DNA of 64,000 bases from Candidatus Nanoarchaeia archaeon (GCA_035289425.1 DATDXC010000038.1:732-64731); one strand, 5' to 3'. Positions 2,756-40,099 are shown, counted from the first letter of the stretch. Made by a program: numbers and translations. Notes: generated by a model from the sequence alone, not told the origin.

Positions 2756-2759
2756 TTCA

Positions 2760-14964: not shown

Positions 14965-16170
14965 CTAGAAAAAGCGGGGTATACCATTTTTTAGAATATC
15001 ATCTAAGTTTGCTTGGGTAAGAGGTTTTCCCTGGACTGCTAGGGCACCACCTGCATTAATTGCAATCAAAAGTTCTTTAGGTGTGGAAACTCTTCTTGTG
15101 ATTAATCGGACAATTCCGGTTGCTAATGATTTGTCTCCAGTTCCGACACTTGCTCCGCCCTCTTCCACATCAAACGAGGGTACGATGGAAGTTGTATATG
15201 TCCAATCATGATTACTGCCCCCACTTACTTGGCTAAGGTCAGACAAATTATTATTATCCCACGTAAATGCAGTGCTCCCGGCAGGCCCATTCTTAAAAAT
15301 TACTATGCCTGGTCCACTTTCAGCATAGCCCAATTGCACAGCCATCCGTTCAAAGGGCATTCTTCCTGTTAAATGATATGCTTCTTTTGCGCTTGGTGCA
15401 AATATATCGATAGATCTTCCAAGGTAAGGCCCCCAATAGCCATCAAGTCCTATGTTCCTCATCCTTTTTAGGTCTCCTCCTGTATCAAGAACTGTTAAGG
15501 TTTTACGTCTCTTAAACTCTTCAAACAGAACCCGTATACCTGTGCCTGATCTCAAGCACATCGAACGTGCAATGTTCAGATAGTAAAATGTTGCTGCCTG
15601 AATCTGGCAGGGATCTGCGGCTCCCATATAATCAGGTGCATATGCATTGTTAGCAACACCAGGCGAGTGAATAAAACTTCTCTCCAAATCACCTGATTCT
15701 GTCTTTCTCACAACCGCAACAGTTCTTGCTGTTCCTCCCTTTAATGGGAAGCATCCTGACATGTCTATGCCTGCTGCTTCGCCGCTTTCTATCAGATACT
15801 TTGCAGAAGTATCATATTCTCCACCATCGGTTCCCAGCGCAAAGAAACCGCCTGTGCTCGGCAGCCCTAACTGGCGCGCATAGCCAGCAACGAACAGCAA
15901 AGCATTCAACCCGCCACCTGGATTTCTCTCAACATACATCCCTTTGATGCCATTGGGATCTTCTCTAAACAAACCAGATCCGGCCATCTGGTTTGTGGAC
16001 CTTTCAAAGATCTCTGCATCATCAGTTTCATTTAAGCCCCCCTCATCTACCGGAAAGCCAGGCACTTTTTCCCTAATTTGAGCATAGGCAACTCCTGGTT
16101 TTGCGTGATAGACCTGGTCATCAACCGCTAAGCCGACCGCTGCCAGCGATATTGGTTTCTTTGTTGACAT
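14965..16170 (-). CDS. PfkB/ribokinase-family carbohydrate kinase (diverged, N-terminal extension)
   Basis: GG-motif region NPGGGLNALLFVAGYARQLG...ALGTDGGE. C-terminal anion-hole-like VGTGDKSLATG. 401 aa. Confidence 0.55.
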   Translation of the reverse strand: MSTKKPISLAAVGLAVDDQVYHAKPGVAYAQIREKVPGFPVDEGGLNETDDAEIFERSTNQMAGSGLFREDPNGIKGMYVERNPGGGLNALLFVAGYARQLGLPSTGGFFALGTDGGEYDTSAKYLIESGEAAGIDMSGCFPLKGGTARTVAVVRKTESGDLERSFIHSPGVANNAYAPDYMGAADPCQIQAATFYYLNIARSMCLRSGTGIRVLFEEFKRRKTLTVLDTGGDLKRMRNIGLDGYWGPYLGRSIDIFAPSAKEAYHLTGRMPFERMAVQLGYAESGPGIVIFKNGPAGSTAFTWDNNNLSDLSQVSGGSNHDWTYTTSIVPSFDVEEGGASVGTGDKSLATGIVRLITRRVSTPKELLIAINAGGALAVQGKPLTQANLDDILKNGIPRFF

Positions 16171-16172
16171 TT

Positions 16173-17468
16173 TTATCTCCCCATGTTTGCCCTTGCGGCT
16201 TTCAATGCTTGCGTTGTCAAGTGATATTTTGTCAGGAGCCTGCTGTATTCCACCTCTCTTGGGAATGGTTCTGTTCCGGCCACATACCGGAATGCTTGCT
16301 CTGCGACTTCAGTAAAGTGCGCGAAGTGATTGGTGAAGTGTAGCTCTGGAATAATGACTTCATAGCCGTTTCTATTTGTAACATACGCTCCAATACTTGC
16401 ACCTGTAATACCCCTCCTTGTCAATGTTCCCACCTGTGTGGAAAGTGCTTTCATAAAATCAGTACTACTTTCACCATTGGTGGGTTTTACATATATCCTT
16501 TGATGCTTATCCTGTGGTCCTTTTTCAACAATAATGGTTGCTTTGGATTCTAGGGTAGTTGAGTAGTGTTCGTCATCCTCGCCTTGCAGATTCCAGACGA
16601 CTTCGATACCGACCCAGTGTCCATCAAGCTTATAGACAAATGACCCATTGGTCATGACCGGTAATGATCCCCTCAAACCATATGACCTCCCTTTTGTCAT
16701 AGCCATCAGGTTTGAAGCAGGAACTTCTGTGGCCCATCTTCTGGCATATTGTTCCACAAGAGCAATATCTTCTGGAGCGATTGCTGAATTGGGTCTGACC
16801 ATCATGTTGGCCATGTCAACCAAATGGGCAGTTACATCTACGATACCTTCGCCTTGCCATCCTACATCAAAATATTCCAATGGCCTCACAATGCCTTGGT
16901 GGGATTTATCAAGAATATGAATGCTTTTTTTCGTCAGGGCAGGGTGTTCTGGATTTCCAGTTGTTAACTCTCCGAACAATTCAGCATTCTGCATCAGGCA
17001 CATCTGAACAATGGTACCTAACTCATGCCGTTCTGTCATGATGTCCTGAAGGATAGTGCCTCTGTGGGTGGCTCTGTCCAGTAGTTCTTGTACTTCGTCT
17101 GTTCTTTCTGGTTCGATGACCCACGGTTTATCTGCTAGGATCAGGCGATATCCGGTTCCTGCAGTGTGCGCGAGCACGTCAAGCTTACTATGATTCGGAG
17201 ATGCTAGTACCAGAATATCTCCCCTTGACTTTAACATATCTTCGAGCGGAAAACTTGATGGGTGTCTTTGGAATTTGTACCCTAATGCTTCTGCGCCGCT
17301 GTTAGCTACTTTTGTATCGAAGGCCGTGAGCGGATTACTTTCGCTATGGTACACATGAACAGTTGGATCAATCGTCAATCCAGGAATATCATCGAATCTC
17401 TTCCCGAAGAGAAAGGCAGCATGCTGGTGCACTGGATCAAATACGTCAATCTTTAGGTTTGTTGGCAT
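16173..17468 (-). CDS. Gfo/Idh/MocA-related protein (C-terminal alpha/beta domain-like; N-terminal Rossmann degenerate)
   Basis: ILADKPWVIEPER resembles the EKP motif region. Translationally coupled to the downstream bona fide Gfo/Idh/MocA gene (16-nt overlap). Confidence 0.4.
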   Translation of the reverse strand: MPTNLKIDVFDPVHQHAAFLFGKRFDDIPGLTIDPTVHVYHSESNPLTAFDTKVANSGAEALGYKFQRHPSSFPLEDMLKSRGDILVLASPNHSKLDVLAHTAGTGYRLILADKPWVIEPERTDEVQELLDRATHRGTILQDIMTERHELGTIVQMCLMQNAELFGELTTGNPEHPALTKKSIHILDKSHQGIVRPLEYFDVGWQGEGIVDVTAHLVDMANMMVRPNSAIAPEDIALVEQYARRWATEVPASNLMAMTKGRSYGLRGSLPVMTNGSFVYKLDGHWVGIEVVWNLQGEDDEHYSTTLESKATIIVEKGPQDKHQRIYVKPTNGESSTDFMKALSTQVGTLTRRGITGASIGAYVTNRNGYEVIIPELHFTNHFAHFTEVAEQAFRYVAGTEPFPREVEYSRLLTKYHLTTQALKAARANMGR

Positions 17469-18622
17469 TTTTTATCTCCCCCATGAACTCTTAAGTCCCT
17501 CACATACCCTGGGCCTGGTCTATATGTTCTATCGATAGGTAGTGTAACTGGTCGTCCAAGTTCGCATGATTGGTACAAAGCCAATATAAGTTCTAATGTT
17601 CGAGTCGCATCATCTGGGCTTACAGCTAATTTATTGGAACCTTGAATATGTCTGACTATATTCTGAATTTGAGTCCTATGGGCCATAAGCGGAATAATGT
17701 TGGGATCAGAAGCACTGCTTACACTCTCATATTGTGGATCAGTATATGGAGCATTATCTCGCAGCTGCCAAACTTCCTGTTTAAGATTACCTCCTGCTAA
17801 TATTATCTCCCCTTCAGTTCCCTTCACTATAACCTGTTCCTTATAACCCTCTCTTGATTTCAAATGTGTGGCTGCAAAAATGGTTCCTGTTGCCCCATTT
17901 TCAAATCCTACGGAGGCATACGCATGGTCTTCAGTTTGAATAGAGTGATAGATACGACGTGCTTCTCCAAAAATCTCTCTGACCTCACCACCCAGATGCC
18001 TAAGCAAATCAATGAAATGGATTCCTTGGTTCATCGCAGCGCCACCACCATCATACTGCAATGTTCCTCTCCAGTTTTCTTTATAATATTTAGGATCTCT
18101 CCACCAGGGAACCAGCGCATGTACTTCAGTAAGGTCCCCTAGTTTTCCGTCTTGAATAGCTTGCCTTGTCCTTTGTACACTCGGTTCAAATCTTTTCTGG
18201 GAGACTGGTGCCAGAACAACTCCTTGTGTAAGACAAGCATCAGTCAAATAATCAGCAGCCTTTAAAGTAACTTCAAGCGGTTTATCCATTATCATATGCT
18301 TGCCAGCTTCTGCTGCCCTTACACCATATGATGCATGCTCTCCTGAAGGAGTTACGATGATTACTGCGTTAATATCGTCTCTTGCTAAGAATTCATCAAG
18401 CTCAGTTGTAAAAGTGATATCGCTTGGTAACTCTACACCTTTTTCAGTACCTAATCGTTGCCTGAACTGTTGAAATCTTTCATCGCCACCTCGGTGATTG
18501 AAGTATCCGACAATGTGGGCTCCCTCAACTGGAGGCATGCCTTCCTGGCCTATGATCGCAACTGTATGCATAACTGCAGCATTTCCTAAGCCAATGATTC
18601 CGATTCCGAGGTCTGGCAGCAT
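17453..18622 (-). CDS. Gfo/Idh/MocA-family NAD(P)-dependent oxidoreductase
   Basis: Rossmann GIGIIGLGNAAVMH. MDKPLE (EKP motif). C-terminal alpha/beta domain. Confidence 0.8.
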   Translation of the reverse strand: MLPDLGIGIIGLGNAAVMHTVAIIGQEGMPPVEGAHIVGYFNHRGGDERFQQFRQRLGTEKGVELPSDITFTTELDEFLARDDINAVIIVTPSGEHASYGVRAAEAGKHMIMDKPLEVTLKAADYLTDACLTQGVVLAPVSQKRFEPSVQRTRQAIQDGKLGDLTEVHALVPWWRDPKYYKENWRGTLQYDGGGAAMNQGIHFIDLLRHLGGEVREIFGEARRIYHSIQTEDHAYASVGFENGATGTIFAATHLKSREGYKEQVIVKGTEGEIILAGGNLKQEVWQLRDNAPYTDPQYESVSSASDPNIIPLMAHRTQIQNIVRHIQGSNKLAVSPDDATRTLELILALYQSCELGRPVTLPIDRTYRPGPGYVRDLRVHGGDKKCQQT

Positions 18623-18630
18623 TTACTTTT

Positions 18631-19632
18631 CTAACCTCTTACAAGTCTAAATCCTTTTTGCTCTAAGAAGTCGCTTGCGATTACAACTTTGTTGTCGTCC
18701 AGAGTTTTAGTCGCTCTTCTTATGGCACGATTTAGGAAGAGGTCTCCTGGATCATAACTTTCACCTGAAGACTCCAGTACAAAGAGACCATTTTTACCCG
18801 CACGTACAGCATGCCAATGTCCTGGTGGAATAGTATAATTTTCTCCTAATACCATCGGTACAGTAACTATCTCCCCTGGCCTAAATACCCTTGGTATTAT
18901 CTCTCTTTCTGCTGCTGGAACTGATGCCCAAACACTGTCAGACAAATTGAAATCAACCGCCCGTTCGTCTTTCCTGCCTAGACTTACACCTATATAGTTA
19001 CCATCTCCATGCCAAACAGTAAAGGTCTCTCCTTTTCCAGCGATGACTTCTCCACCATATTTTGCAGCGAAACTTCTGATACTCTCAAGAGTCCTTTCTG
19101 ATGTGCCTCTTTTTGGAACATAATATGCAAACTGAGATGTATCAAATTCTCCTCTCTTGTCTGCCGGTCCAAAATCAGGATTAAGCTGTTCAATAGGTGT
19201 AAGATACTTTAAGAATCTTGGTCTTGCTCTTGTTACTGCTTCCCTGTAAAGCACAACAATAGGATCATGTTCATGAAACGGCAAATATTGTCCAATTTCA
19301 GCACCTTCTTTTGCAGCTGTCCAGCTAAGGGCTTTACTTCCATAACCGGAAGATTTAATCGCCGGAGCAGTATTGGTAGCAGGTAAAATTATTGTGGGAG
19401 CTTGATTAGTTATTACCATCAGCTCAAGTCCTTGATCATCTATTGTAGTCTGATCTAGCGACCGTGGATCTCCAGTAAATGTATCTCCTACATTAAACTT
19501 CGGGTTTGTTAGACTAAAATCTGCTACTTCCATGTATCTTGGTCCTCGAACAGCTGCGTATGTAGGTAAAACTTTAGCCATTATCGCGTGTGATGCATCT
19601 TGTACTCTAAACAATGTTTCGTTTGTTAACAT
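18631..19632 (-). CDS. cupin-fold protein, possible sugar isomerase
   Basis: C-terminal cupin motif PPGHWHAVRAGKNGLFVLESSG. Sits inside a sugar-catabolic operon. Confidence 0.35.
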   Translation of the reverse strand: MLTNETLFRVQDASHAIMAKVLPTYAAVRGPRYMEVADFSLTNPKFNVGDTFTGDPRSLDQTTIDDQGLELMVITNQAPTIILPATNTAPAIKSSGYGSKALSWTAAKEGAEIGQYLPFHEHDPIVVLYREAVTRARPRFLKYLTPIEQLNPDFGPADKRGEFDTSQFAYYVPKRGTSERTLESIRSFAAKYGGEVIAGKGETFTVWHGDGNYIGVSLGRKDERAVDFNLSDSVWASVPAAEREIIPRVFRPGEIVTVPMVLGENYTIPPGHWHAVRAGKNGLFVLESSGESYDPGDLFLNRAIRRATKTLDDNKVVIASDFLEQKGFRLVRG

Positions 19633-19638
19633 TTTTCA

Positions 19639-21231
19639 TTACCTCGCCTTTGCTGCAGCCGCAGCTTCAAATTGTTTGTAAGCTTCAAACATCCCCTGGT
19701 AGACTGCATGTCTTGCTGAATTTGGTGTAAATGTTTTTGATACAGTCTCAAATGGAGATAACACCTCATTCCATGGAGTTGGTTGATCCTCATTGAGATA
19801 GGCATGCCTTGCCCTTAAAGCTGCTCCTAATGTAGCAGAATCAGAAACATCTCTTCGGTAGACTTCTTTTCCAGTAATATCCGCAATCGTCTGCACAAGC
19901 CCATCATTGTCTGAGGCTCCTGCTGTGACAAATAACCTCTTTGGCTCGATACCCATAGCTTCTAATTTTGCCATCATTGAGAATATTTTATACTCCACCA
20001 TCGCTTTAATGTTGTACATATCTCCATTTTCAAATCCAGGCGAACGGTCAGTTAATGGTTTGGAAGTTTTTGGTGCTATTTCAGCTTCATGCCAATACAC
20101 TGCCATCTTTTTCGGATCTGGATTTGTGTCAAGAAGATATTGTGAGACAGCTGCCCAATCCATTCCAAACTCTTTTGCAATCTTTTCTCTTACTGTTGAT
20201 CCATTCTTCCAACATGCTAAGTACATATTATGGTTAAACTCTTTTGGGTCTCCGAACACGCAAGTGCCACCAGAGTAATCCCATTTTTTGCTGGCACCCA
20301 TAGATCCAAAAACAGTGTCGCTGGTTCCTAAGCTGATACCTATATCTCCATCGCCGGTCAATACAACTCCGACTAATGAATTTGGGTTGTCTCCTGAGAA
20401 TGGAGCTACTGAAGCATCTAGACCAAATCTATTAACTATGTAGTTTGATGTTGCACCGCTCAACTGATCAGCTGCACCAATGTTAGGTAGCCTTATTAGT
20501 AGATTAGTTGCAGTTGCTCTTGTCAATATCTTTGACCAGGCTCTTCTGTCAACATTCATCAGCATCATGCCGCCAGCATCTCCCGGATCAACCTTTGCCT
20601 GACCTGTCAACAGTCCATAATGAAATGATGAAACAAGGTGAACTTCCTTAGTATCATGCCATGCATTACCATACATTTGCTCGAATTTTCTGATTTGAGG
20701 ACCGGTAAGCCTTTCAAATGCTCCGCCACCTGTCAAATCAACAATTCGGAGAGATCCGCCAACAGCTTCGATGATCTCTTCCATCTGGCTTGTTGTTGAA
20801 GAGTCTTTCCATACAGCTGCAGTATATCTTGAGTCGCCTCGAATAGTATCAGTTCTGGTAAAAGCAAATCTATCAATGAGCTGACCCGTAAGCGGTTGAG
20901 ATGGGTCTAATGAATTGACTATTGTCGATATGGGCATCCTTAAAAGAACAGATCCATGCTGTTGTCCAGAACCGGAAACAGCCGCAATGTTTTTTCTCAT
21001 TTCTTTAGGAATGCCTGTCAGAATATGGTCCAGACCCATTGTCCACACTACTGGCGAGCCCAGAACAACATTACCCTCAAGCTCCCAGAAACCATCTTTA
21101 AGAATATATCCCGGAGGTTGGATATCATCATACTTAACAGATTCTCTATGCACGACATTTTTTCCATCGATGACAACAGCAGTAGTTGACTGAGAACTTC
21201 CTTCGATCCCTAAAAATAGTTTTTCTTCCAT
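19639..21231 (-). CDS. FGGY-family carbohydrate kinase (xylulo-/ribulokinase-like)
   Basis: N-terminal actin-fold motif FLGIEGSSQSTTAVVIDG. C-terminal FVTAGASDNDGLVQTIADITG. Start set at the ATG at 21231, which has a GGTGA ribosome-binding site 5 nt upstream; the ORF-track start is at 21312. Confidence 0.8.
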   Translation of the reverse strand: MEEKLFLGIEGSSQSTTAVVIDGKNVVHRESVKYDDIQPPGYILKDGFWELEGNVVLGSPVVWTMGLDHILTGIPKEMRKNIAAVSGSGQQHGSVLLRMPISTIVNSLDPSQPLTGQLIDRFAFTRTDTIRGDSRYTAAVWKDSSTTSQMEEIIEAVGGSLRIVDLTGGGAFERLTGPQIRKFEQMYGNAWHDTKEVHLVSSFHYGLLTGQAKVDPGDAGGMMLMNVDRRAWSKILTRATATNLLIRLPNIGAADQLSGATSNYIVNRFGLDASVAPFSGDNPNSLVGVVLTGDGDIGISLGTSDTVFGSMGASKKWDYSGGTCVFGDPKEFNHNMYLACWKNGSTVREKIAKEFGMDWAAVSQYLLDTNPDPKKMAVYWHEAEIAPKTSKPLTDRSPGFENGDMYNIKAMVEYKIFSMMAKLEAMGIEPKRLFVTAGASDNDGLVQTIADITGKEVYRRDVSDSATLGAALRARHAYLNEDQPTPWNEVLSPFETVSKTFTPNSARHAVYQGMFEAYKQFEAAAAAKAR

Positions 21232-21435
21232 CTTTTTCACCTTATTCCTTTCAAATAATTTATGATGCTCACCGCCATACGGATGCGACCAATACGGCAG
21301 TAATACATTCATCGTTGATCATGAGTTTTTATATTTCTATGATTAACTATTTTTCAAAACTCTTTTTTAAAATCCCCTGAAAAAATTATACCTTAAAGTT
21401 GGTTTATTATTTATAAATATTTGTATTTGACTGAC

Positions 21436-21469
21436 GTCAAATGTGTCCCAAAGTGGTGACAAAAAATAG
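21436..21469. repeat. copy A of conserved ~30-nt palindromic motif (TGM/TrmB-operator-like)
   Basis: GTCAAATGTGTCCCAAAGTGGTGACAAAAAATAG aligns with the copies at 29425 and 31024. An adjacent TGACGTCA palindrome is also present. Confidence 0.5.
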
Positions 21470-21983: not shown

Positions 21984-22571
21984 ATGCAAACAATAATCAA
22001 GCCTGGAATATTGAAGATTCTAAGGATATTCTATAGCAATGGGAATAAGCCTGTGCATTTAAGGGAAATTGCCAGATCTTCCCATATGAATGAAAGCACT
22101 GCTTCAATGCATCTGAACTCGTTGGTAAAAAAAGGAATTTTAAAGGCAGCTGTTGAAGGTAATCTGAAAAAGTTTTATATCAGCAAAGACTTTACTCCTG
22201 TAATCTTACCTTTGTTTGATTATGAAAGGCTTGAAAATCTTCCATTGTTAAGGAAAAATGCAATAAAAATCTATCTTAAATCTCTTGAAACCAAGCCTCT
22301 GCTTGCTGTTGTTTTTGGCTCAACAGCAAAGGGAAATTTTAAAAATGATTCTGATATTGATATATTGGAAGTCAGCAACAGCAAAGATAACAGATCTAAA
22401 AGGGTTGTAGAGGCACAAACAGGAGTTCATATGCAGGTGTTCAGAATTGGTGAAAAACAATTTATAGAAGAGCTGAAATTAAAAAAAGATAATGTGGTGC
22501 AGTCGGCTTTAAATACTGGTTTTCCTGTTTTTAACCAGAAATACTATTATGAGGTAATCTACAATGAATGA
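21984..22571 (+). CDS. minimal nucleotidyltransferase (MNT) with N-terminal wHTH; HEPN/MNT TA module component
   Basis: Pol-beta-type nucleotidyltransferase motif AVVFGSTAKGNFKNDSDIDIL. N-terminal winged-helix region. 8-nt overlap with the HEPN gene. Confidence 0.75.
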   Translation: MQTIIKPGILKILRIFYSNGNKPVHLREIARSSHMNESTASMHLNSLVKKGILKAAVEGNLKKFYISKDFTPVILPLFDYERLENLPLLRKNAIKIYLKSLETKPLLAVVFGSTAKGNFKNDSDIDILEVSNSKDNRSKRVVEAQTGVHMQVFRIGEKQFIEELKLKKDNVVQSALNTGFPVFNQKYYYEVIYNE

Positions 22572-23082
22572 AAAACAATTAAAGGAGTTATTGGAAAACC
22601 CGCAGCTTGTTGGTGAGAAGATTGATTTTTACATAAAGAATAAAATATTGTTTAAACAGGAATTTGATGAAGCTGAGATGAAAGGCCATATACAAAAGGC
22701 AGAGCATAATGCAAGCTTTATACAGGATACTTTAAAGCAGAATTATACTGATTGGGCAATTGTTGGCTGTTATTATGCAAGTTACCATATTGCTCTGGCA
22801 TTGCTTCTCAAGAAAGGGTTTTCATCAAAAAACCATGATGCAACTCTTTGCGTATTGATAAAATATTATTATGGGAAAGAGTTAACTAAGGATGATATTG
22901 AGCTTATCAATCGCATATATCTCGATAACAATGATATCTTATTTTATGTCCAGTCAAAACAGGAACGTGAGAAAGCATCATACTCAAGCCAGATTGTTTT
23001 TGACAAGAAGCTTGTAAATGAACTAAGGCTTAAGACGCTCCTTTTTGTAAACAAAGGCAAAGATATTATTGATAAAAATTGA
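22564..23082 (+). CDS. HEPN-domain protein (HEPN/MNT module partner)
   Basis: 172 aa, all-helical. HEPN-like core KAEHNASFIQDTLKQ...AIVGCYYASYHIALALLLKKG. Translationally coupled to the MNT gene. Confidence 0.7.
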   Translation: MNEKQLKELLENPQLVGEKIDFYIKNKILFKQEFDEAEMKGHIQKAEHNASFIQDTLKQNYTDWAIVGCYYASYHIALALLLKKGFSSKNHDATLCVLIKYYYGKELTKDDIELINRIYLDNNDILFYVQSKQEREKASYSSQIVFDKKLVNELRLKTLLFVNKGKDIIDKN

Positions 23083-23471
23083 AACAACAAAATTCCATTT
23101 GTTTGTAACAAATGGTTTGACAGCAAAATAATATGCCGTTGGGATTTTGTTGTGTTCAAAAACCACATCAATGGAATCATTGAAAATCAAGGATTTTCAA
23201 TGTGCTCAGAAATCGCTTGCGATTTCCAACATTTCAGTGTCAAAAACCATCGCATATGTTTGTACTAACCACAACATGCCACCCATCTCTGATGTGTGGT
23301 TTTTGACATTAAGATTAAGGAAATAGCACCATATTAGATTATTGTTTTTTAAATTAAAAAGGAAAAAAATAAAAAAATTGTATTTGTTTAGCTGATTTTT
23401 GACTTTTTTCTTTGATTTGTATTGTCCAGCACAATAAAGTATAAATACTTGTTAGCTACATTGTAGCTAAC

Positions 23472-23609
23472 ATGAAGGAGACAAATATTCGTTTGACTGG
23501 TTTTGAGATGCTTGAGAAGCGGGTCAATAAAAGCGGTAACAGTGGTCGCGTTTATGTGCCAGTGGAATGGATTGGAAAACGCGTTAAGGTAGTCCTTCTT
23601 GAACAATGA
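23472..23609 (+). CDS. small transposase-associated protein, DUF2080/AbrB-MazE-like (45 aa)
   Basis: MKETNIRLTGFEMLEKRVNKSGNSGRVYVPVEWIGKRVKVVLLEQ. The sGNSgrvyvPvewiGk swapped-hairpin signature resembles archaeal transposon-encoded DUF2080 proteins. Its stop overlaps the transposase start (ATGA). A perfect 10+1+10 palindrome ends 1 nt before its ATG. Not in the ORF track (below 60 aa). Confidence 0.5.
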   Translation: MKETNIRLTGFEMLEKRVNKSGNSGRVYVPVEWIGKRVKVVLLEQ

Positions 23610-24925
23610 AACTCTATTGTGACAAACAGGAATTGAAGAAGAAGTCGAAAGACGAGCTTGTCGACAATCTTTATGATTCTCTTGTTGAGATTGATAAGCT
23701 CAAGCGTGAACTTCGCAAATACAAGAACCCTAACACTCCTCCGAGTGCTCATCCTTTTCTTAAGCCTGCTGTTCGGCCTGTGCGGCGGCACAGGCGCGGT
23801 GCCCCGAAGGGGCATCCTGGCACGACGAGACCGTGGCTGGTGCCGCATGAAGTGCGGCACATTCTTGGTAAAGAATGCCCTAATTGCCACAGTAAGTATG
23901 TTGGCGTGATTGGCCAGAAACATCAGCAACAAGAGGAGATGCCTCCTGAGATTCGTCCGCAGACTGTGGATGTTGTGCGTGATGTTTGCAAGTGCAACAA
24001 GTGCGGCCTCAAGTTTCTTGCCCGTGATGGCATGACTCCATTGCAGGGCAGATTTGGCATAAACCTCATAGTTCTTGTTATCTTCCTCAAGTTCATCGTA
24101 AGAGGTGTGTTGAGGAAGACCTCGAGCTTTCTTGATGCAAGCTTCGATTTGAAGCTTGCGCCTGCAAGCGTGCAGGCAATTATCGAGAGGGCGGCTAAGG
24201 CAGGAGAAGCGGAATACTCGGCATTGAAGTCGAAGATCAAGACAGCAAAGCTCTTGTACATCGATGAAACGAGCTTTCGCGTTCTTGGCCTGAACTGGTG
24301 GGTCTGGGCCTTCCGCTCTGACACTGACCTGCTGCTTGTGATTCGGAACAGCAGAAGTAGCAAGGTCCTCGAAGAGATTTTAGGCAAGGACTACACTGGC
24401 ACGATAGTGTGCGACTGTTGGCGCGCATACGACTTCCTCAGCAACGCAACTTTACAGCGTTGCTGGGCGCATTTACTACGCAAATCCGCAGAACTCGAAA
24501 GCGTCGCAGGAAGACACTTCCACAAAAAGCTCAGTAAGCTTTTTGACAGGATACTTAATTTCAATAGCAAGGAAAGAACAGAACAACAGCGAGGACATAA
24601 GTACCTGCAAATGACTGCTGAATTACAAAAAGTAATCTCGTACTACTCGCGCTATGAAGAATGCCAAGCAGTCGTCAAGTACATTGATTTTCATATAGAG
24701 AGCTGGTTCACCTGCATCAAAATCTTGGGAGTGCAGCCAACAAACAACTACGCAGAACAAGCAATCAGAGAAACAGTCTTGGTGCGAAAGATAATCGGAG
24801 CGTTCCGCTCCGAAAAAGGAACCAAGACCTACGAAACACTCGCATCACTCATTGCCACATGGCAAATCCAGAAAAAAGAAATAAAAACCGAGTTTAACCG
24901 AATGCTAAGTACAAACCTCTGCTAA
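23606..24925 (+). CDS. IS66-family transposase (TnpC-like DDE)
   Basis: N-terminal coiled coil. Zn-finger CPNCHS...CKCNKCG. DDE-region motifs LLYIDETSFRVLG, GTIVCDCWRAYDF and LQRCWAHLLRK match IS66 TnpC hallmarks. Confidence 0.85.
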   Translation: MKLYCDKQELKKKSKDELVDNLYDSLVEIDKLKRELRKYKNPNTPPSAHPFLKPAVRPVRRHRRGAPKGHPGTTRPWLVPHEVRHILGKECPNCHSKYVGVIGQKHQQQEEMPPEIRPQTVDVVRDVCKCNKCGLKFLARDGMTPLQGRFGINLIVLVIFLKFIVRGVLRKTSSFLDASFDLKLAPASVQAIIERAAKAGEAEYSALKSKIKTAKLLYIDETSFRVLGLNWWVWAFRSDTDLLLVIRNSRSSKVLEEILGKDYTGTIVCDCWRAYDFLSNATLQRCWAHLLRKSAELESVAGRHFHKKLSKLFDRILNFNSKERTEQQRGHKYLQMTAELQKVISYYSRYEECQAVVKYIDFHIESWFTCIKILGVQPTNNYAEQAIRETVLVRKIIGAFRSEKGTKTYETLASLIATWQIQKKEIKTEFNRMLSTNLC

Positions 24926-24949
24926 AAGAGCTAAACAAATACAAAAAAT

Positions 24950-26026
24950 TTATTTACCCATGATGTGATCTAAAATTTCAACTTCTAACTGCTCGTAATC
25001 CCTTTTCCTTTTGAGTTCTTCTGCATTTTTCCAATTAAATGTTCTTACTTTGTCAACTAATGTTAAAAAGATTTGTCTGCTGTGCAGTAAGTGTTTTGTT
25101 GCAATATCTGCTGGTTGTGTTCGCATAGCTTTAACATCTAGCCCGACCATCTCACCATTTCTTCCATAACCATTCTGTTCAAGGACATGCACCTGATTGA
25201 AAGCTCTTCTAATATCCACAGATCCAAATGTTTTGTCCTGATCATATTTCGGTCCATTTTGATCATTTAAGTGAACTGTCCAAAGCTTATTGCATGCTAA
25301 TGCAAACCCCATTTCATCAGATGGGTCTAAACCTGCTAGTATAGCATGGGCACTTTCAATATTAACACCTACTCTAGATTGGTCCTTTGTCATGAATGCC
25401 AAGGCTACCGCATGTCCTGTTGTAGGAATGTAAGCTTGATCCATCGGCTCATTTGGTTTTGGTTCAACAGCAATACGAATGTTTGGATCATAATCTAGCA
25501 TTACATTAATAGCATTTACCAAGTATTCAACAGAACGTCCAGGATCTTTTGCTTCTCTAATATATGTTCCTTCCCGTGCTAGCCATAATACGATAAGATC
25601 TGTTCCAAGATTATTGGCGACATCTATAGCGCATTTTGACCTATCTATAGCATATTGGCGGCATGCAGGGTTGTTAGATGTATAAGCTCCATCAATTGTT
25701 CTGTTATCTTCCCATAAACGTGGCGCAACAAATTCTGCCACCAATGATTCACCATCAAGCATGCTTTTGACTTCTCTTGCTTTTTTTCCAACTGCAGATA
25801 ATGACTTATCCATAATGCCAGGCACTGCGTCATCATCATGAAACTGCACTCCTGCAAAACCAAGAGTCCTGTACATTGCAACTTTTTTTGCAAATGTTAT
25901 TTCACCTCTAACTGCTGGCCCAAATGGATCTGCTCCTGGATGAATATTCCATGGCCCAAATGTGAACCTATATTCTGTCTTCCCCTCTTTATTGACATAT
26001 TGTGATGTTGGTTGTATTATTGCCAT
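24950..26026 (-). CDS. xylose isomerase-like TIM-barrel protein (class I XylA-like)
   Basis: N-terminus FTFGPWNIHPGADPFGPAVR...FHDDDAVPG parallels class I XylA (FTFGLWTVG..DPFG..TFHDDDL). EPKPNEP signature present. Confidence 0.7.
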   Translation of the reverse strand: MAIIQPTSQYVNKEGKTEYRFTFGPWNIHPGADPFGPAVRGEITFAKKVAMYRTLGFAGVQFHDDDAVPGIMDKSLSAVGKKAREVKSMLDGESLVAEFVAPRLWEDNRTIDGAYTSNNPACRQYAIDRSKCAIDVANNLGTDLIVLWLAREGTYIREAKDPGRSVEYLVNAINVMLDYDPNIRIAVEPKPNEPMDQAYIPTTGHAVALAFMTKDQSRVGVNIESAHAILAGLDPSDEMGFALACNKLWTVHLNDQNGPKYDQDKTFGSVDIRRAFNQVHVLEQNGYGRNGEMVGLDVKAMRTQPADIATKHLLHSRQIFLTLVDKVRTFNWKNAEELKRKRDYEQLEVEILDHIMGK

Positions 26027-26084
26027 TTTTTGTCCCCCTGCCTGTTTTTATTGCTTTTAATTTAAAAAAATAAAATAAAAAAAT

Positions 26085-27707
26085 TTATTTAGCTACTACT
26101 GCTGGAACAAAATATCCACCAGGTACTGCGCCTGTATCTCTTTCAAATGGTTTGTTCTGGAACAAAATCTCTTTACCAACCATCTTTCTATACGCAGATG
26201 CAACACTTAGCGGAATAGCTCTATAATCAAGCGGCATTTCATTTGCTTCTCTCATGTAAGCAGATAATCTTGCTTGACCAACGTCTAAAATGCTTTGGTC
26301 TGGTGCCAAGAAACCATTTGTAATTTCTCTGTCTTCAATCTTAATCAGATTGGCAGCGATTGCATGCGCTCTGTTTATCCTATTGAATGCTTCAACAACA
26401 TTTTCAAGAGGATCGTCTCTTACTGCAAACAGATCAGGTTCATAGACGATTTTTTGGTGCAGTCCTGCTTTTCTTTCATGATAGCTGCTTACAACTAAGT
26501 CTGATTCATGCACCATACCTGGCAATAAATCAGGATCTCCATTTCCAACAAATGCATCATTTGGATGCCTGTGGAACAATCTGCCTGTGTAATTAGCTAT
26601 AACTGTGTCAGCTTCCTTAGTTTCATATCCCATTCCTTTTAACATCCTAACGTCGTCTAAGAATTGCGTAGTTAAACCGGCGTTTATGCTTGTTTCAGTT
26701 GCATGAGCAACAATTTGGGCTGTTTTTGTATATACGTGCGCGTCTTCAATGTTTATTCCCATTGAGCCAGCAAACTGAGAGAATCTTTTTACACTTTCTG
26801 CAACTATTTCTTCCATTCCCCCTCCTTTCATCGCTGCTGCTACATTTTCTTTTATTCTGGAATAAACAAGGTTTTCAGCATCTTGACATACCCTTAAAGA
26901 TGATTCAACACCATCCTCTGTCATAAATATTGCCGGATCTCCAGGCTTAAATTCAAGCGCTATCTTCCTACCTGTCAGCATCATCATATCTGCATAGTAC
27001 TCTACCAACATCTGCCTTCTTGGATTTGCCTGGTCAAATGTATATTGTCCGTCCTGACCCAGCCAATCAACCTGAAATGCTGTGTTATCCTGAGCACACC
27101 AGAAGAATCCCTGCAATTTTCTCAAATAGGCTAATTCTTGTACCTGTGTATAAGGGGAGGTTACACCACCAAACTTGAACGGTGTTTCTGTGAATAAGTT
27201 CGCGAATTCAGATCCTACTTTCATATGGTGTTGAGCCAATGTGTATAGTGCGGCCTCTCTGTTTGTAGGTCCCATTTCTCCTTGTGTATGGAATGACATT
27301 GATGAAACACCGATCATTCCACAGAATTCAATTGTTTGTTCTAAAGTTAGTTTTTCGTTAGGAGCCAGTACATGCGGGCTAAATCGAGTTCCCATCCCAC
27401 CAGCTAGATACCATGCACCAACGCTCATTGCAAGACCAGCTGAACCGATCGCTGCTCTTGCTTCTTCAAACAATGGCGTAGCATATCTTTCTGTATTCAA
27501 ATCAACTTTTTCAGCTGGCGCTGCTCTTACCCAAGGTAATGATCCTTTAAAAAAATCTGCATTTATCTCTGCTTCAAGGCTTGCCATCCTTGTCTCTACA
27601 AACTTTAGTGATTTAGTATAATATCTAGGAGTAAATCCTCCCTCTTCTCGCATTATGCTAAACAGTGCACCCTTCAATTGTGGTATTCCCATTTTCTTTT
27701 CCTCCAT
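26085..27707 (-). CDS. unusually long (540 aa) xylose-isomerase-like TIM-barrel sugar isomerase/epimerase, specificity unknown
   Basis: LEFKPGDP (compare EPKPxEP). GINIEDAHVYTKTAQIVAHATETSINAGL parallels XylA LNIEANHATLAGHSFHHE. About 100 aa longer than class II XylA. Confidence 0.5.
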   Translation of the reverse strand: MEEKKMGIPQLKGALFSIMREEGGFTPRYYTKSLKFVETRMASLEAEINADFFKGSLPWVRAAPAEKVDLNTERYATPLFEEARAAIGSAGLAMSVGAWYLAGGMGTRFSPHVLAPNEKLTLEQTIEFCGMIGVSSMSFHTQGEMGPTNREAALYTLAQHHMKVGSEFANLFTETPFKFGGVTSPYTQVQELAYLRKLQGFFWCAQDNTAFQVDWLGQDGQYTFDQANPRRQMLVEYYADMMMLTGRKIALEFKPGDPAIFMTEDGVESSLRVCQDAENLVYSRIKENVAAAMKGGGMEEIVAESVKRFSQFAGSMGINIEDAHVYTKTAQIVAHATETSINAGLTTQFLDDVRMLKGMGYETKEADTVIANYTGRLFHRHPNDAFVGNGDPDLLPGMVHESDLVVSSYHERKAGLHQKIVYEPDLFAVRDDPLENVVEAFNRINRAHAIAANLIKIEDREITNGFLAPDQSILDVGQARLSAYMREANEMPLDYRAIPLSVASAYRKMVGKEILFQNKPFERDTGAVPGGYFVPAVVAK

Positions 27708-27757
27708 GTTTTGTTTTTTTATTGTTCGCTTCTATTTTCTTAAAATAAAAAATTAAT

Positions 27758-29287
27758 TTATCTGCTTATGGCCCTCAATAACTCTAGCCTTTCTGCAAAC
27801 TGTTCAGATTTTGTATCCGCTTTGACTACATGATGTGGTATGCCCCACATGTTTGCAAGTGCAGTCAGGTATTCCATCCTGAGCGCTGTGGAAAGTGTCG
27901 GATGATGTGTCTCTCCGGCAAGAGCAGCGCATTCCAGGGCAGTTTCAAGGTCAGCTTTGTATCTTACCAGTCCTCTTGCTGTTGGTAAATTGGGCAAGGG
28001 GGGAGTCTCAATAATCTCCGCATCCGATGTCATAAGATTATAGCCTGATGGTGTCATAAACAATGAGGTGATGGTGCAGTCGCCTGGAGCAAAGTCAAAC
28101 ACCGTCCTCACGGGGTTTCCGCTCTGGCCGATATCCAATGGATGAATCTCTAATCGTGGCTTGGCAGCAGCAAGTGCAGGGTTGCTTTCAATCATGTGCG
28201 CGAAAAGCACAGCTTTATTTGTGAAATCGAAGACATATGGCTCAGAAAATGATGATGTTCCGTGTAGTCCTTGTCCCATGATCGAGTGTGCGGCTCCTAA
28301 AGTTGCAGCCATGACATCTCCTTCTGCTCCGTAGCCCCATCCATCCCTCATCAACTCTTGTGCTGCCATCCCCGGGAGCTGTGTCATCGGTCTAAGGTTA
28401 CCGAAATAAGAAGTCCATGCTGTTGCCTTCATGGTCCCCAACAATTCTGCAAGAACCAGATACTGACCTGCTGCGTAGAGAAGGCTGTCATGGTCCTTGC
28501 CAGTTTTTCCGAGTTCTGGAACCGATTCATAACGCCCCAGCCACTGTTGAGCCATTTCTCTGAGTGAATCTTTGCTTAATTTGTGAATCTCTGCATCAAT
28601 AAGGTTGGGGCCAAGATCATCATTAACTCTCACTCCTGTAATTCTTTGTAATTCAGCAATGTCTGCATCAGTACCTCTGACACCGGACATCTTCCCGCCA
28701 ATTCGCAGAATCTCCTGACCTCTGAGCGTGGTTACTGCTGCAGCAACTCTGCCATACATCTCAAATTTTCGCAGGAACGCGTCTGAGGCGTAATGGCCCG
28801 AAACCACATTCTGTCGGATTCCCGCCCTCACTAATGTATGAGCTCCTTCCATGAATCCGTGGGGTGTCTGATTGGTATTCATATAATTCATATCGAGGGT
28901 GGCTGGCATTGATTCATTCATAGAAGTAATGAGGTGGATATAGGGAACCGTCAAACTTCGGTATGCCTCCAAGTGCATTCCACCGGGAGAAAACGTATGG
29001 AACCAAGCTGCTAATCCTATGCAGTCCGGATCCTTTGTCTCAGCAACAACTCTTTGAGCGTCTGCAGGGGACTTTACGGTGCCTCCGTACTTGACCTTGA
29101 AGGGCATGCGTTCGTCAAGATTGCCTGCCACTTGTTGAGTGTTCCTGTCAACTTGAGCCAATGTTTCCGCACTGTACAAAGTCTGGGTGTTGCTTACTAA
29201 CAGCACATGCTGAGGATGATCCTTTTCAGGAATACCTGAACCGCCTCGATAGAAAAACTTTTGTTGCATCTTTAAACGCCTCCACAC
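27758..29287 (-). CDS. araA: L-arabinose isomerase
   Basis: Multiple blocks align with E. coli AraA: FHTFSPGGM (LHTFSP), LDMNYMNTNQTPHGFMEG (MDFMNLNQTAHGGREFG), QLPGMAAQELMRDGWGYGAEGDVMAATL ([29 protein letters not shown]), HGTSSFSEPYVFDF. Confidence 0.85.
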   Translation of the reverse strand: MWRRLKMQQKFFYRGGSGIPEKDHPQHVLLVSNTQTLYSAETLAQVDRNTQQVAGNLDERMPFKVKYGGTVKSPADAQRVVAETKDPDCIGLAAWFHTFSPGGMHLEAYRSLTVPYIHLITSMNESMPATLDMNYMNTNQTPHGFMEGAHTLVRAGIRQNVVSGHYASDAFLRKFEMYGRVAAAVTTLRGQEILRIGGKMSGVRGTDADIAELQRITGVRVNDDLGPNLIDAEIHKLSKDSLREMAQQWLGRYESVPELGKTGKDHDSLLYAAGQYLVLAELLGTMKATAWTSYFGNLRPMTQLPGMAAQELMRDGWGYGAEGDVMAATLGAAHSIMGQGLHGTSSFSEPYVFDFTNKAVLFAHMIESNPALAAAKPRLEIHPLDIGQSGNPVRTVFDFAPGDCTITSLFMTPSGYNLMTSDAEIIETPPLPNLPTARGLVRYKADLETALECAALAGETHHPTLSTALRMEYLTALANMWGIPHHVVKADTKSEQFAERLELLRAISR

Positions 29288-29424
29288 TTCATTCCTTTCA
29301 GTGAGAATAAGTCCTTAGGATGTTGCCTATTGGTTGGTGCCGTTCTGAAGACCCCCAATGTTAAATAACAGATTTATCCGTAATTTCTATAAGGTTTATA
29401 AAGTTTTGTATTGTACCGTCGAGA

Positions 29425-29455
29425 GAAATGTCACAAGGTGGTGACAAAAAATAGG
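29425..29455. repeat. copy B of conserved palindromic motif: TGTCAC-N6-GTGACA + A7
   Basis: GAAATGTCACAAGGTGGTGACAAAAAATAGG. Perfect inverted half-sites at 29429-29434 and 29441-29446. Lies ~140 nt upstream of the araA start. Confidence 0.55.
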
Positions 29456-29459
29456 AGGG

Positions 29460-30197
29460 TTATTTCAATAATCTTTTCATAACTTCTTCTTTAACTTGTT
29501 CATAACCAGGCAAAAAAGATACTAATTCCTTTAGATCTCTTTCATAAGTTTGTTTTGAAGGCATCTTAATATTCTTTAGGTTGCCATTTTCCTCTTTAAG
29601 CTTAGCGGCCAATAATTTCTTGTCTAATTCCACGCCTTTACTTAGAAGAATCCAGACATCATATAAATCTCTTGCCTGCGCTCTAGTAATCAATGCCCTT
29701 ATTTTTTCTGTCAAAATCTCCTTTTCATCAAGAGCAACAAGTGTAAATGGAGGAACATCTGAAAAAATCTGCGGAATTACTTTAGCAACTTTGTTACTCA
29801 CTTTTCCCTTATTAAAATCTATTTTTAGGGTGTTTGATGAATGGGGATCTCCTTTAAATAAAGGCCCTTCAAATCTTGCCTCTATCCGTAGATTCCCCTG
29901 ATATTCTTTTTCGGAATATATTTTGTAATTGATGTTCAATAATGAAAAGTCTTTAAGGCACTTATGGATGCTATCTTTAACTTCGATTAGAGCCAGGCTT
30001 GTGCTGAAATCCAAATCTTCAGATGCCCTCTCAAGATTATAACATATCCTTAGGCAGGTTCCACCTTTAAATACGAATTTATCTGCAAATTTGGACAAGG
30101 CATTAAGAAATATGAACTGCAAATATTCTTTTTCTTCATAATAAAGGTTTGTTTTTCTTCTATTTTTAACTTCATCTAATTCATCTGTCGATATCAT
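29460..30197 (-). CDS. AbiEii-family nucleotidyltransferase toxin (type IV TA / abortive infection)
   Basis: FKGGTCLRICYNLERASEDLDFS matches the AbiEii/DUF1814 signature (GGTAL...R.SEDLDF). 245 aa. Confidence 0.8.
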   Translation of the reverse strand: MISTDELDEVKNRRKTNLYYEEKEYLQFIFLNALSKFADKFVFKGGTCLRICYNLERASEDLDFSTSLALIEVKDSIHKCLKDFSLLNINYKIYSEKEYQGNLRIEARFEGPLFKGDPHSSNTLKIDFNKGKVSNKVAKVIPQIFSDVPPFTLVALDEKEILTEKIRALITRAQARDLYDVWILLSKGVELDKKLLAAKLKEENGNLKNIKMPSKQTYERDLKELVSFLPGYEQVKEEVMKRLLK

Positions 30198-30903
30198 CGT
30201 TAATATCCAAGAGCCATTCCTTATTTAAATTATTCCTTTTGTCAAGAGAAGGATCTAATCGCTCATAACCCCTGCCTATATTCTTTCTAATTCTTTCTAT
30301 TACGTTTCCTTTATATTTTAAATACTCTAATATAAATCCAAGCCTTCTGAGCACCGCTTTGCTCTCCACTTTGAGCGCATAGTCACAAAGCGTATCCAAT
30401 TCTATCTCATTCAAAGAAGTTTCAATGCAGTTAATAATCTCCCGTATGCCACCCGCATATTTAGGGAATAATAATGAGTCAACTAATGCCTTTTCCTTAT
30501 CTGCTATGATTATAGCTCCTGATTTTTTGTATCCAAAGAACCTTTTCCGAGAAATTGTTATATATTTGAAGTTTTTTATTCTTTTTCTAAACCTGGTGGT
30601 AGCATAATACGCTGTTTTAGGCAGTTGGTCTGTGAATTTGTAGTAACTCAAAGCTGACCAAAAACTCAAGTATGAAGGCCAGTTTAGATATGAGCCAATC
30701 TCCAATTCATTTGCGCCTTTAAGGGAATAAAGACCGGCTTTTATAGTTTGAATTGCATTTTTCTTTTTTAATGCCTTTATTAGGTTATATGCCTTACCTT
30801 TTTTAATGTTTAAGAGCAGCATCAAATCTTGGGTCTTAAAAATAGCCAAATTGTTTTTCTTAAATGTTTCATACGCTTTTGACTCTAGCTTGCTTAATTG
30901 CAT
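30181..30903 (-). CDS. AbiEi-family antitoxin/transcriptional regulator
   Basis: N-terminal wHTH with the AbiEi hallmark (...IFKTQDLMLLLNIKKGKAYNLIKALKKKNAIQTIKAGLYSL). 17-nt overlap with the AbiEii gene. Confidence 0.7.
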   Translation of the reverse strand: MQLSKLESKAYETFKKNNLAIFKTQDLMLLLNIKKGKAYNLIKALKKKNAIQTIKAGLYSLKGANELEIGSYLNWPSYLSFWSALSYYKFTDQLPKTAYYATTRFRKRIKNFKYITISRKRFFGYKKSGAIIIADKEKALVDSLLFPKYAGGIREIINCIETSLNEIELDTLCDYALKVESKAVLRRLGFILEYLKYKGNVIERIRKNIGRGYERLDPSLDKRNNLNKEWLLDINDDIDR

Positions 30904-31023
30904 TTTTCTTTTGTTTTAGTACTATTTTTACTAATAATGAAGATAATTACTATATAAACTTTTTGGTTTTAGAAGAAAAGACAAAGCTACGAACGAAGTG
31001 AGCACGTTTTTGTTTTAGACTTA

Positions 31024-31053
31024 GAAATGTCATACGGTGGCGACAAAAAAGTG
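31024..31053. repeat. copy C of conserved palindromic motif (TGTCAT-N6-GCGACA + A7)
   Basis: GAAATGTCATACGGTGGCGACAAAAAAGTG. ~120 nt upstream of the AbiEi start and just 3' of the SDR gene. Confidence 0.5.
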
Positions 31054-31093
31054 ATTGTGGAACAGTAAACGAGTTTGTGCCAGAACAAGAATT

Positions 31094-31969: not shown

Positions 31970-32023
31970 AATAGTGGGGATTGTTCTTTCCTTTTTAAGT
32001 TTTTTTAATTTGAGTACTCGAAA

Positions 32024-39376: not shown

Positions 39377-40099
39377 TTAGGCATTATTCCAGAGGATATG
39401 GAAAAATTTCTTGTATGATTTTGCTGCCAGTTCTTCTTCGATTAAAAAACCGAATGGCTTGTCTAAATAAATAATTATTCCGACCCTATTGCCGCATATA
39501 ACCGTTTCTGTCAGTTCTTCGAAATATTTTTTTGTAACCCTTATTTCTGTCAATTTCAGCTTTTTTAGCTCGTTGCCCCACCAGGCCAATGATGCGTGAA
39601 AAAGAAGCTTGGCTTTAATCTTTTTATTGATTCTCTTCTTGTGGAATCCTTCCCAGAAATAAGTTCCTAATAATTCATCGCTTTTTTGGGCACCACCATA
39701 ACCAAAATATTCTTTTGAATTTGTTTCTAACATCAAATTTAACAATTCTTTTACCCCTCTTGCCCCCTGAAAAATGATTGCTTTTGGCTTTTCTTTGGCC
39801 AGTACTCTTTTTGCTTCTAATTCTGGCAATATCTTTTCTAATCGCGATTTTTTTTCATCTAAAAAATTTAATAACAATTTTGGTTCAATTGCCTGATATT
39901 GCTTGATTCGGCCTTCCATCACATACGTAATCAGACCCTTATTAGCTAATGAATGGAAGGCTCTATGCACTACTGCATTCTGCAGTCCTGATTTTTCAAC
40001 TACCTTACCTGCTGTTGAGGAGCCTAATTCTAATAACGTTATGAATACTTTTATTTCTGCTCCTGTTAAGCCTATATCTTCCAGTATTGATGTGTCCAT
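39377..40099 (-). CDS. TrmB-family transcriptional regulator (sugar-responsive type)
   Basis: N-terminal wHTH GLTGAEIKVFITLLELGSSTAGKVVEKSGLQNAVVHRAFHSLANKGLI matches the TrmB DNA-binding domain. C-terminal sensor-like domain. Confidence 0.7.
   Translation of the reverse strand: MDTSILEDIGLTGAEIKVFITLLELGSSTAGKVVEKSGLQNAVVHRAFHSLANKGLITYVMEGRIKQYQAIEPKLLLNFLDEKKSRLEKILPELEAKRVLAKEKPKAIIFQGARGVKELLNLMLETNSKEYFGYGGAQKSDELLGTYFWEGFHKKRINKKIKAKLLFHASLAWWGNELKKLKLTEIRVTKKYFEELTETVICGNRVGIIIYLDKPFGFLIEEELAAKSYKKFFHILWNNA

Follow-up and report, generated by a model that had tools for sequence, protein, structure and literature searches.

Arabinose-inducible promoters of Sulfolobus carry the ARA-box (AACATGTT), a short crenarchaeal element located upstream of the BRE of pentose-catabolic genes. 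For the DPANN archaea, which are uncultured or dependent on co-culture, almost nothing is to our knowledge described about gene regulation, and a literature search gave no relevant match. The Thermococcales glycolytic motif (TGM), TATCAC-N5-GTGATA, is bound by TrmBL1/Tgr, and its presence upstream of BRE/TATA marks activated promoters (PMC4158304). In general, TrmB-family sites located upstream of BRE/TATA correspond to activation and those lying over or downstream of the TATA box to repression, and Ptr2 of Methanocaldococcus jannaschii uses a site upstream of BRE/TATA in the recruitment of TBP/TFB (PMC4158304).

The sequence described here is a 64-kb stretch of DNA (64,000 nucleotides, referred to throughout as the window) from a DPANN archaeon. 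Proteins identical to those it encodes carry the source name 'Candidatus Nanoarchaeia archaeon', and Woesearchaeota is the name given to close homologues of two of them, the TrmB-like and AbiEii proteins. The window also encodes a class I lysyl-tRNA synthetase, FtsZ and class III signal peptide pilins, and identical loci, AbiE included, are present in several metagenomes. Inspection of the sequence confirms the three copies of a short motif reported in the initial annotation, all of them on the plus strand as written: copy 1 at 21439-21469 (AAATGTGTCCCAAAGTGGTGACAAAAAATAG), copy 2 at 29426-29454 (AAATGTCACAAGGTGGTGACAAAAAATAG) and copy 3 at 31025-31053 (AAATGTCATACGGTGGCGACAAAAAAGTG). Their number is far above that expected from shuffled sequence. 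A degenerate 26-mer pattern matches copies 2 and 3 with no mismatches (0.00 expected in 100 shuffles), the 15-mer GGTGGTGACAAAAAA with up to two mismatches allowed has four matches in the window against 0.15 expected (the three copies together with a weaker two-mismatch site within the TrmB-like gene), and these three are the only sites in the 64 kb with the loose form TGTC-N10-GACA. A chance origin of the three copies is excluded. When they are aligned on TGTC...GACA the N10 spacing is identical in all three, copy 1 having two extra bases at its left. The middle copy is, as first described, a perfect TGTCAC/GTGACA palindrome with a 6-nt spacer, and it is the only copy that is; the family consensus, TGTCCC-AARGTG-GTGACA, is an imperfect dyad in which the 'spacer' is conserved as strongly as the arms. 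The similarity is not of the same extent in all pairs. Copies 1 and 2 have a 60-nt unit in common that is 78% identical and includes the TATA box TTTATAAA (repeat D1), whereas copy 3 has only 28 nt in common (repeat D3, 89% identical to copy 2).

Read in the direction of the downstream genes, the motif forms part of a promoter module consisting of a T6 run, the 17-nt box GTCACCAnYTTGGGACA, six unspecified bases, TCGTCGR, a further 13-14 bases ending in an A-rich BRE (CAAAAAG), and the TATA box TTTATAAA. The box is itself an imperfect dyad, TGTCnC...GnGACA. About 20 nt past the TATA box there is a conserved ATAATTT, the putative start region, followed by RGGGGGA, a leader of 100-125 nt, a GGAGG or GGGGG Shine-Dalgarno sequence and an ATG. 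Copy 2 is a full module (29395..29451, minus strand) at the head of an araA-like operon, with orthologous copies in three other contigs (L100, L102 and L105). Its parts are the T6 run at 29451-29446, the box GTCACCACCTTGTGACA at 29445-29429, which has two differences from the 17-nt consensus, TCGACGG at 29422-29416, the A-rich BRE at ~29409-29403 and TTTATAAA at 29402-29395. Copy 1, the full module of the FGGY-kinase operon (21410..21466, minus strand; E = 8e-17 in an nhmmer search with the full-module profile), is made up of T6 at 21466-21461, the box GTCACCACTTTGGGACA at 21460-21444, which corresponds exactly to the consensus box, ACGTCAG at 21437-21431 and a TATA box at 21417-21410.

There are several features of this arrangement that bear on its role. 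First, the parts are held in register. Six full modules (copies 1 and 2 and those of contigs L092, L094, L100 and L105) can be aligned without gaps from the T-run to the TATA box, copies 1 and 2 and those of L092 and L094 remain gapless over 77 nt, and the L102 module requires a single inserted base to align with the other six. Second, every full copy is orientated towards the operon downstream. As TTTATAAA is its own reverse complement, it is the side on which the BRE lies that decides promoter direction, and the A-rich stretch is on the box side of the TATA box (CAAAAAG followed by TATATAAA, and CCAAAAAG followed by TTTATAAA), so that the promoter should fire towards the sugar genes with the motif upstream of BRE/TATA. 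The other promoters of these loci, those of abiEi, the HTH-nucleotidyltransferase gene and the toxin-antitoxin (TA) cassette of L100, have their BRE and TATA elements arranged alike (CCGAAAAG/CCAAAAAG-TTTAWATA, 25-47 nt before the ATG). With minus-strand genes downstream and the BRE on the box side of the TATA box, the functional orientation is opposite to the one in which the motif had been written. Third, a distance of 38.5 bp separates the box centre from the TATA centre downstream of it. Taking the usual TATA centre of about -27, the box would lie at about -65 and TCGTCG at about -48.

Archaeal activators such as Ptr2, and TrmBL1/Tgr on gluconeogenic promoters, bind at such an upstream position (PMC4158304), and the best reading of the arrangement is of an element in an activator-type position upstream of BRE/TATA, not of an operator lying over the promoter. 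The fixed distance and orientation relative to BRE/TATA that characterize archaeal upstream activator sites are both found here, with an A-tract between TCGTCG and the TATA box. The fixed distance is likewise a property of Ptr2-type sites and is compatible with recruitment of TBP/TFB; the sequences themselves are unrelated and no Lrp-family gene is linked to the element here. The ARA-box is similar in being a conserved element upstream of the BRE of pentose genes and differs in sequence, length and regulator.

The two full modules of the window each precede a set of minus-strand sugar genes, in agreement with what had been proposed from their positions and with the Pfam assignments. Copy 2 would drive the araA-like operon (24950..29269), which begins with an AraA-like isomerase (27758-29269; the start at 29269 is that of a 503-aa gene call, with GGAGG 9 nt upstream), followed by a 540-aa protein (26085-27707) that belongs to no Pfam family and has no detectable relatives of known structure, and a xylose-isomerase-like TIM barrel protein (24950-26026). 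Copy 1 would drive the FGGY operon (14965..21312; Pfam, PDB), encoding an FGGY kinase (19639-21312), a 333-aa protein of no Pfam family (18631-19632) whose C-terminal part is weakly similar to cupins of the D-lyxose/D-mannose isomerase type (PDB 7nzo, E = 3e-4), a GFO/IDH/MocA protein (17453-18622), an Oxidoreduct_C protein (16173-17468) and a 401-aa protein of no assigned family (14965-16170). Sugar genes in the same window can also be without a module, as in the divergent pair (31970-32023) of altronate dehydratase and an SDR gene (31094-31969, minus strand; Pfam).

The module is found before araA-like genes in L100, L102 and L105, where the AraA proteins are 51%, 45% and 54% identical to that of the window. 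The nearest AraA relatives are 45-55% identical, the next-best being 55%, and upstream sequence is present for these three. Pairwise comparison of the four araA upstream regions gives a mean DNA identity of 0.79 for the module, against 0.49 and 0.50 for the intergenic sequence that flanks it upstream and downstream, respectively. At 45-55% protein identity, a module identity of 0.79 is not residual similarity, and the block is therefore under selection. Two further copies were recovered by scanning metagenomes. The L092 module precedes genes for a GFO/IDH/MocA protein, two xylose-isomerase-like proteins and a membrane transporter; its T-run abuts the stop codon of an FAA-hydrolase gene, and the contig shares its sample of origin with one of the contigs identical to the window. 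The L094 module has an RHH gene and a 163-aa partner upstream; downstream of it are ~190 nt and then a hairpin/T-run terminator, and a gene for a DUF4143 ATPase lies at a distance of 320 nt. Thus a sugar-type operon follows in six of the seven full copies, L094 being the exception, and the first genes after the module are non-homologous (FGGY kinase for copy 1, AraA-like for copy 2, GFO/IDH/MocA for L092). In L094 (1378-1700, minus strand) the full module is followed by ~190 nt with no convincing ORF and then by the hairpin CTGCAGAGAAGTTTGCAG and several T-runs. This stretch may encode a small RNA or be what is left of a deleted operon; blastn and tblastx comparisons of the region past the module gave no similarity to the other loci and no sugar-gene remnant.

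Random occurrence of the motif, including inside genes, had been named as a finding that would speak against a regulatory role. In ~229 kb comprising the window and the related loci, nhmmer and mismatch scans reveal no further related copies and none inside genes, the only other mismatch matches being those of L093 and L099. The metagenome scan gave nine matches, of which those in L092 and L094 are new true copies and that in L097 is copy 1 itself. The remainder were rejected: the matches of L093, where there are no long ORFs, and of L099, whose genes are bacterial, are unrelated, and those of L091 (inside a long ORF), L095 (a contig of 66% GC) and L096/L098 (neither TCGTCG nor TATA in register) were judged to be chance from their sequence context alone. 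GTDB species representatives, which do not include the source species, yielded 63 single matches to the pattern AAATG-N7-9-GTGGYGACAAAAAA, in unrelated taxa and mostly inside coding sequence, as expected of chance.

Comparison of these sequences shows that the module exists, in a set register and orientation, that it is conserved and that it is associated with sugar operons. The proposal of a sugar-regulon operator accordingly holds in that there is a cis-element tied to sugar operons here, in three distant relatives and at another sugar-type operon, and fails in that the element does not have the placement of an operator over the promoter. We suggest, with a rough probability of 0.62, that it represents a conserved promoter module of ~60 bases heading sugar-catabolic operons in a DPANN lineage of Nanoarchaeia/Woesearchaeota type, with an upstream cis-regulatory site that would define a small sugar regulon, copy 3 being a duplicate arising from insertion of AbiE. 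The motif is most likely the docking site of a putative regulator. A dimeric winged-helix regulator may bind the box, and possibly TCGTCG too, and when bound would help or gate the recruitment of TBP/TFB, such that several pentose or rare-sugar operons would be co-regulated; the T6 run probably doubles as an oligo-T terminator for whatever gene precedes. Protein binding, activation and the identity of the regulator are all inferred, and the TrmB-family protein of the window is only one candidate. Several observations count against this reading. The L094 module is not followed by a sugar gene, and the divergent SDR/altronate-dehydratase pair of the window has no module. The box is conserved as an asymmetric sequence, whereas a simple homodimer site would typically be a clean palindrome. 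Nearly all copies have a TA cassette directly upstream, for which a purely regulatory model gives no account. The module is an incremental variant of archaeal upstream regulatory sites and not a new kind of system, but it provides a concrete DNA bait (target GTCACCACYTTGGGACA) for a regulator among the few wHTH proteins of these small genomes, and a marker with which to delimit the sugar-utilisation regulon in metagenome-assembled genomes.

The initial annotation regarded the motif as very close to TGM and the TrmB-family gene as its likely partner. There is indeed a likeness, in that both sequences are inverted-repeat-like with TCAC/GTGA cores and occur in promoters of sugar-metabolism genes, and the location typical of TGM (sugar-gene promoters, upstream or downstream of BRE/TATA) is that of six of the seven full copies. 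However, in the consensus of those seven copies, TGTCCC-N6-GTGACA, the second half-site position is G where TGM has A, the spacer is of 6 nt and not 5 and is itself conserved, and the dyad symmetry is imperfect. Furthermore, the module has a second conserved box, TCGTCGR, at a fixed distance, and the hosts are Thermococcales in one case and a DPANN archaeon in the other. With half-site, spacing and symmetry all differing, the relationship to TGM is one of resemblance only.

The gene at 39377..40099 (minus strand) does encode a TrmB-family wHTH protein (PF01978), of 240 aa and 10 kb away, and it is possible, though unlikely, that the motif is its operator, in a DPANN version of TGM/TrmBL1. The half-sites are alike (TGTCAC and TATCAC), and orthologues of the gene adjoin the PEP carboxykinase (PEPCK) gene and lie near pyruvate:ferredoxin oxidoreductase (POR) genes, which suggests a role in carbon metabolism. 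Against this, the spacing is N6 where that of TGM is N5, and the protein lacks the sugar-binding domain of TrmB. PF01978 covers residues 6-74 only, residues 10-122 alone can be aligned with P. furiosus TrmB (PDB 3qph), and there is no match to an effector-domain family, so that the N-terminal wHTH joined to a C-terminal sugar-binding effector domain expected of a TGM regulator is not found in this protein, the only one nearby with a TrmB domain, and no effector-domain regulator of TrmBL1/Tgr type was found. Its phylogenetic distribution also differs from that of the module. Over the more than 100 protein clusters listed, many under the name Woesearchaeota, its identity is 60-84%; it is a widely conserved core protein, far more so than an operon whose next-best AraA is 55% identical. 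No TrmB-like homologue is present within ~10 kb of the modules of L092, L100 and L102, and there is no box in 17-21 kb around two close TrmB-like orthologues. It may be a global carbon regulator, and nothing ties it to the motif; the suggestion that it is the motif's regulator is therefore not sustained. In one relative (L117, 10001-12412) the TrmB-like gene is directly before that for PEPCK, and in another (L118) there are two TrmB-like paralogues, at 10001-10732 and 14780-15511, near POR genes.

Copy 3 differs from the other two in being partial. It consists of T6, the box GTCGCCACCGTATGACA and TTTCT (31023..31050, minus strand; nhmmer E = 0.03, core only), has neither TCGTCG nor TATA in register, and is located between the SDR and abiEi genes, 40 nt after the stop codon of the former and 125 nt before the start of the latter. 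Its box has four differences from the 17-nt consensus, one of them a derived T at box position 13 that is common to copy 2 and the other three being further substitutions; the TTTCT tail is likewise common to both. Between copies 3 and 2 there is an inserted AbiE toxin-antitoxin cassette (29460..30968, minus strand) with genes for AbiEii (29460-30197) and an AbiEi-like protein (30181-30903) and a BRE/TATA of its own (~30951-30968). The earlier description of the third copy as lying upstream of an abiEi/abiEii pair is supported by Pfam for AbiEii; AbiEi has no significant Pfam match, and its assignment is based on position, as an overlapping 240-aa partner gene conserved beside AbiEii homologues. 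The GC content of the cassette is 0.32-0.38 and that of its flanks 0.45-0.48. Orthologous loci are without the AbiE cassette and have other TA cassettes instead, and homologous AbiE cassettes, 74-77% identical, are found in unrelated contexts. As these homologous cassettes (L107-L116) have the motif at neither end, it is ruled out as part of the cassette and belongs to the host promoter. In one pair of contigs (L113/L114, ~2100-3760) an AbiE cassette that is 77% identical has tRNA-like sequence on both sides (GGATTCGAACC arms), which suggests insertion next to tRNA genes in that genome; no tRNA is present near the motif here.

Copy 3 (31023-31050) and copy 2 (29424-29451) are direct repeats of 28 nt, identical at 25 of 28 positions and 1599 nt apart, with the 1.57-kb AbiE cassette between them. 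Most simply, the T6-box of copy 2 would have been duplicated when AbiE was inserted, and copy 3 would now be decaying. The initial suggestion that the third copy is a duplicate linked to island insertion thus appears to be the best explanation, given the flanking repeats and the derived base that they have in common. An AbiE-free empty site was sought, but all of the contigs with identical neighbouring proteins also carry AbiE, and the databases have no close sister species (next-best AraA 55%).

The same direct repeats raise the question of whether the T6-box is a recombination or attachment site, or a preferred insertion point for TA and defence cassettes, with copies 2 and 3 as attL/attR or as the target duplication of a mobile AbiE cassette. 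Direct repeats bracketing an insert are what would be expected, and TA cassettes are also directly upstream of the modules of the window (AbiE, and MNT/HEPN near copy 1), L094 (RHH/PIN-like), L100 (HEPN/MNT) and L102 (MNT/HEPN), with a stop codon 0-8 nt from the T-run in four cases. Nonetheless, we consider this quite improbable. An att site would be accompanied by the element's own recombinase and recur at related elements, whereas the AbiE cassette consists of abiEi and abiEii only, with no integrase or transposase in or beside it and no terminal inverted repeats, and the AbiE cassettes elsewhere are without the motif. The repeat here is a conserved host promoter element, and its fixed TATA spacing and conservation before orthologous araA genes argue for promoter function. 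In addition, the other TA cassettes adjoin a single module copy only, the gene upstream of the L092 module is metabolic (FAA hydrolase), and scans of viral contigs with two patterns gave only unrelated tandem repeats or coding matches and no related copy. Nor is there similarity to an integron attC array: the ORFs scanned around the copies include none of an integrase family, no array is seen, and a single cassette alone has a copy on both sides.

It also seems very doubtful that the motif is a mere terminator or insulator for the upstream gene (oligo-T with a small hairpin) with no role for the operon downstream. Termination in archaea needs oligo-T only, and a run of at least five T residues shortly after a co-directional stop codon is indeed present, the T6 run being 0-8 nt past the stop codon in copy 2, L092, L094 and L100 and 40 nt past it in copy 3; in L105, where no upstream gene is co-directional, the T-run is decayed and reads ACTTTC. 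This accounts for T6 only, and not for the box. The 17-nt box, TCGTCG and the exact TATA distance are retained in L102 and L105 where the upstream gene is divergent, and the box must therefore be more than a terminator. The hairpin is not conserved either, copies 1 and 3 folding no better than shuffled sequences (z = -1.0 and -0.4), and the T-run is before the stem on the sense RNA.

A variation on the insertion theme is that the T6-box would be a dedicated capture site, at whose 5' edge AbiE, HEPN/MNT and RHH/PIN cassettes were inserted by a trans-acting recombinase, sometimes with duplication of the 28-nt site; if true, DPANN archaea would have, next to their sugar-operon promoters, a docking place for cassettes comparable to an integron. 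We regard it as highly improbable. TA and defence cassettes of different families and orientations are located immediately upstream of the modules (window 21470-21983 and 29460-30968; L094 1756-2509; L100 8901-9792; L102 8644-9565). These positions could represent a permissive intergenic spot in compact genomes, targeted capture being less likely. The TA toxins of L094 and L100 were compared and are not homologous; the HEPN-like ORF of the L100 cassette (with MNT) and the PIN-like partner of that of L094 (with RHH) are assigned from their translations only, and the L102 cassette is MNT/HEPN. There are also repeats associated with the cassettes. Paired TTTGTAATACCAACA boxes 40 nt apart, followed by CCGAAAAGTTTAAATAG, are present upstream of the TA cassettes of L100 (8790-8843) and L102 (9715-9768), related sequence precedes the RHH and PIN-like pair of L094 (~2480-2520), and in L102 the boxes immediately precede the sugar module, there being no gene behind them, an arrangement that a deleted cassette might have left. 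The paired boxes are probably a shared antitoxin operator/promoter.

Finally, the notion that the palindromic TATA box fires in the opposite direction, so that a small or antisense RNA would begin with the motif and extend into the 3' end of the neighbouring gene, is scarcely credible, since the self-complementarity of TTTATAAA, the start of the box ~23-27 nt from it on the plus strand and the folding of copy 2 into a 6-bp hairpin (z = -3.2) are outweighed by a BRE-like A-tract on the wrong side for plus-strand transcription, an absence of conservation past the A-run, a hairpin that is not a conserved feature in copies 1 and 3 and is without covariation, the lack of any relevant Rfam match in 21000-32000, and an invariant orientation relative to the sugar operon. 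The 5' leaders yielded no consensus structure. A leaderless micro-ORF was also considered and rejected, the ATG of the motif opening different frames in copies 1, 2 and 3 and being absent in L092.

The preferred reading, of a promoter module that heads sugar operons, also bears on the relationship between copies 1 and 2. In L100 and L102 the araA and FGGY genes form one uninterrupted gene string with a single module at its head. In the window this string is broken by an MNT/HEPN and IS66 block inserted between the araA and FGGY gene sets (21984..24955, plus strand), and copy 1 heads the distal part. The block is composed of genes for an HTH-nucleotidyltransferase (21984-22571) and a HEPN protein (22564-23082), both assigned by Pfam, followed by an IS66-family element (~23367-24955) that has 32-nt imperfect terminal inverted repeats (23367-23398 and 24924-24955; repeat I2) and contains a small DUF2080 ORF (23472-23609) and a transposase gene (23606-24925). 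In their unconstrained spacers, copies 1 and 2 are more alike than either is to the spacers of the orthologues, which suggests that the promoter was duplicated within the lineage of the window to give the two copies. It would be an example of a promoter module that was apparently copied to restore transcription to the distal half of an operon interrupted by mobile DNA. No second box was found at the right edge of the MNT/HEPN and IS66 insertion. Ahead of the HTH-nucleotidyltransferase gene, within the stretch from its TATA box to its start codon, there is a perfect 10-bp inverted repeat, ATATGTTTGA-N5-TCAAACATAT (21950-21974), that is probably the autoregulatory operator of this TA pair.
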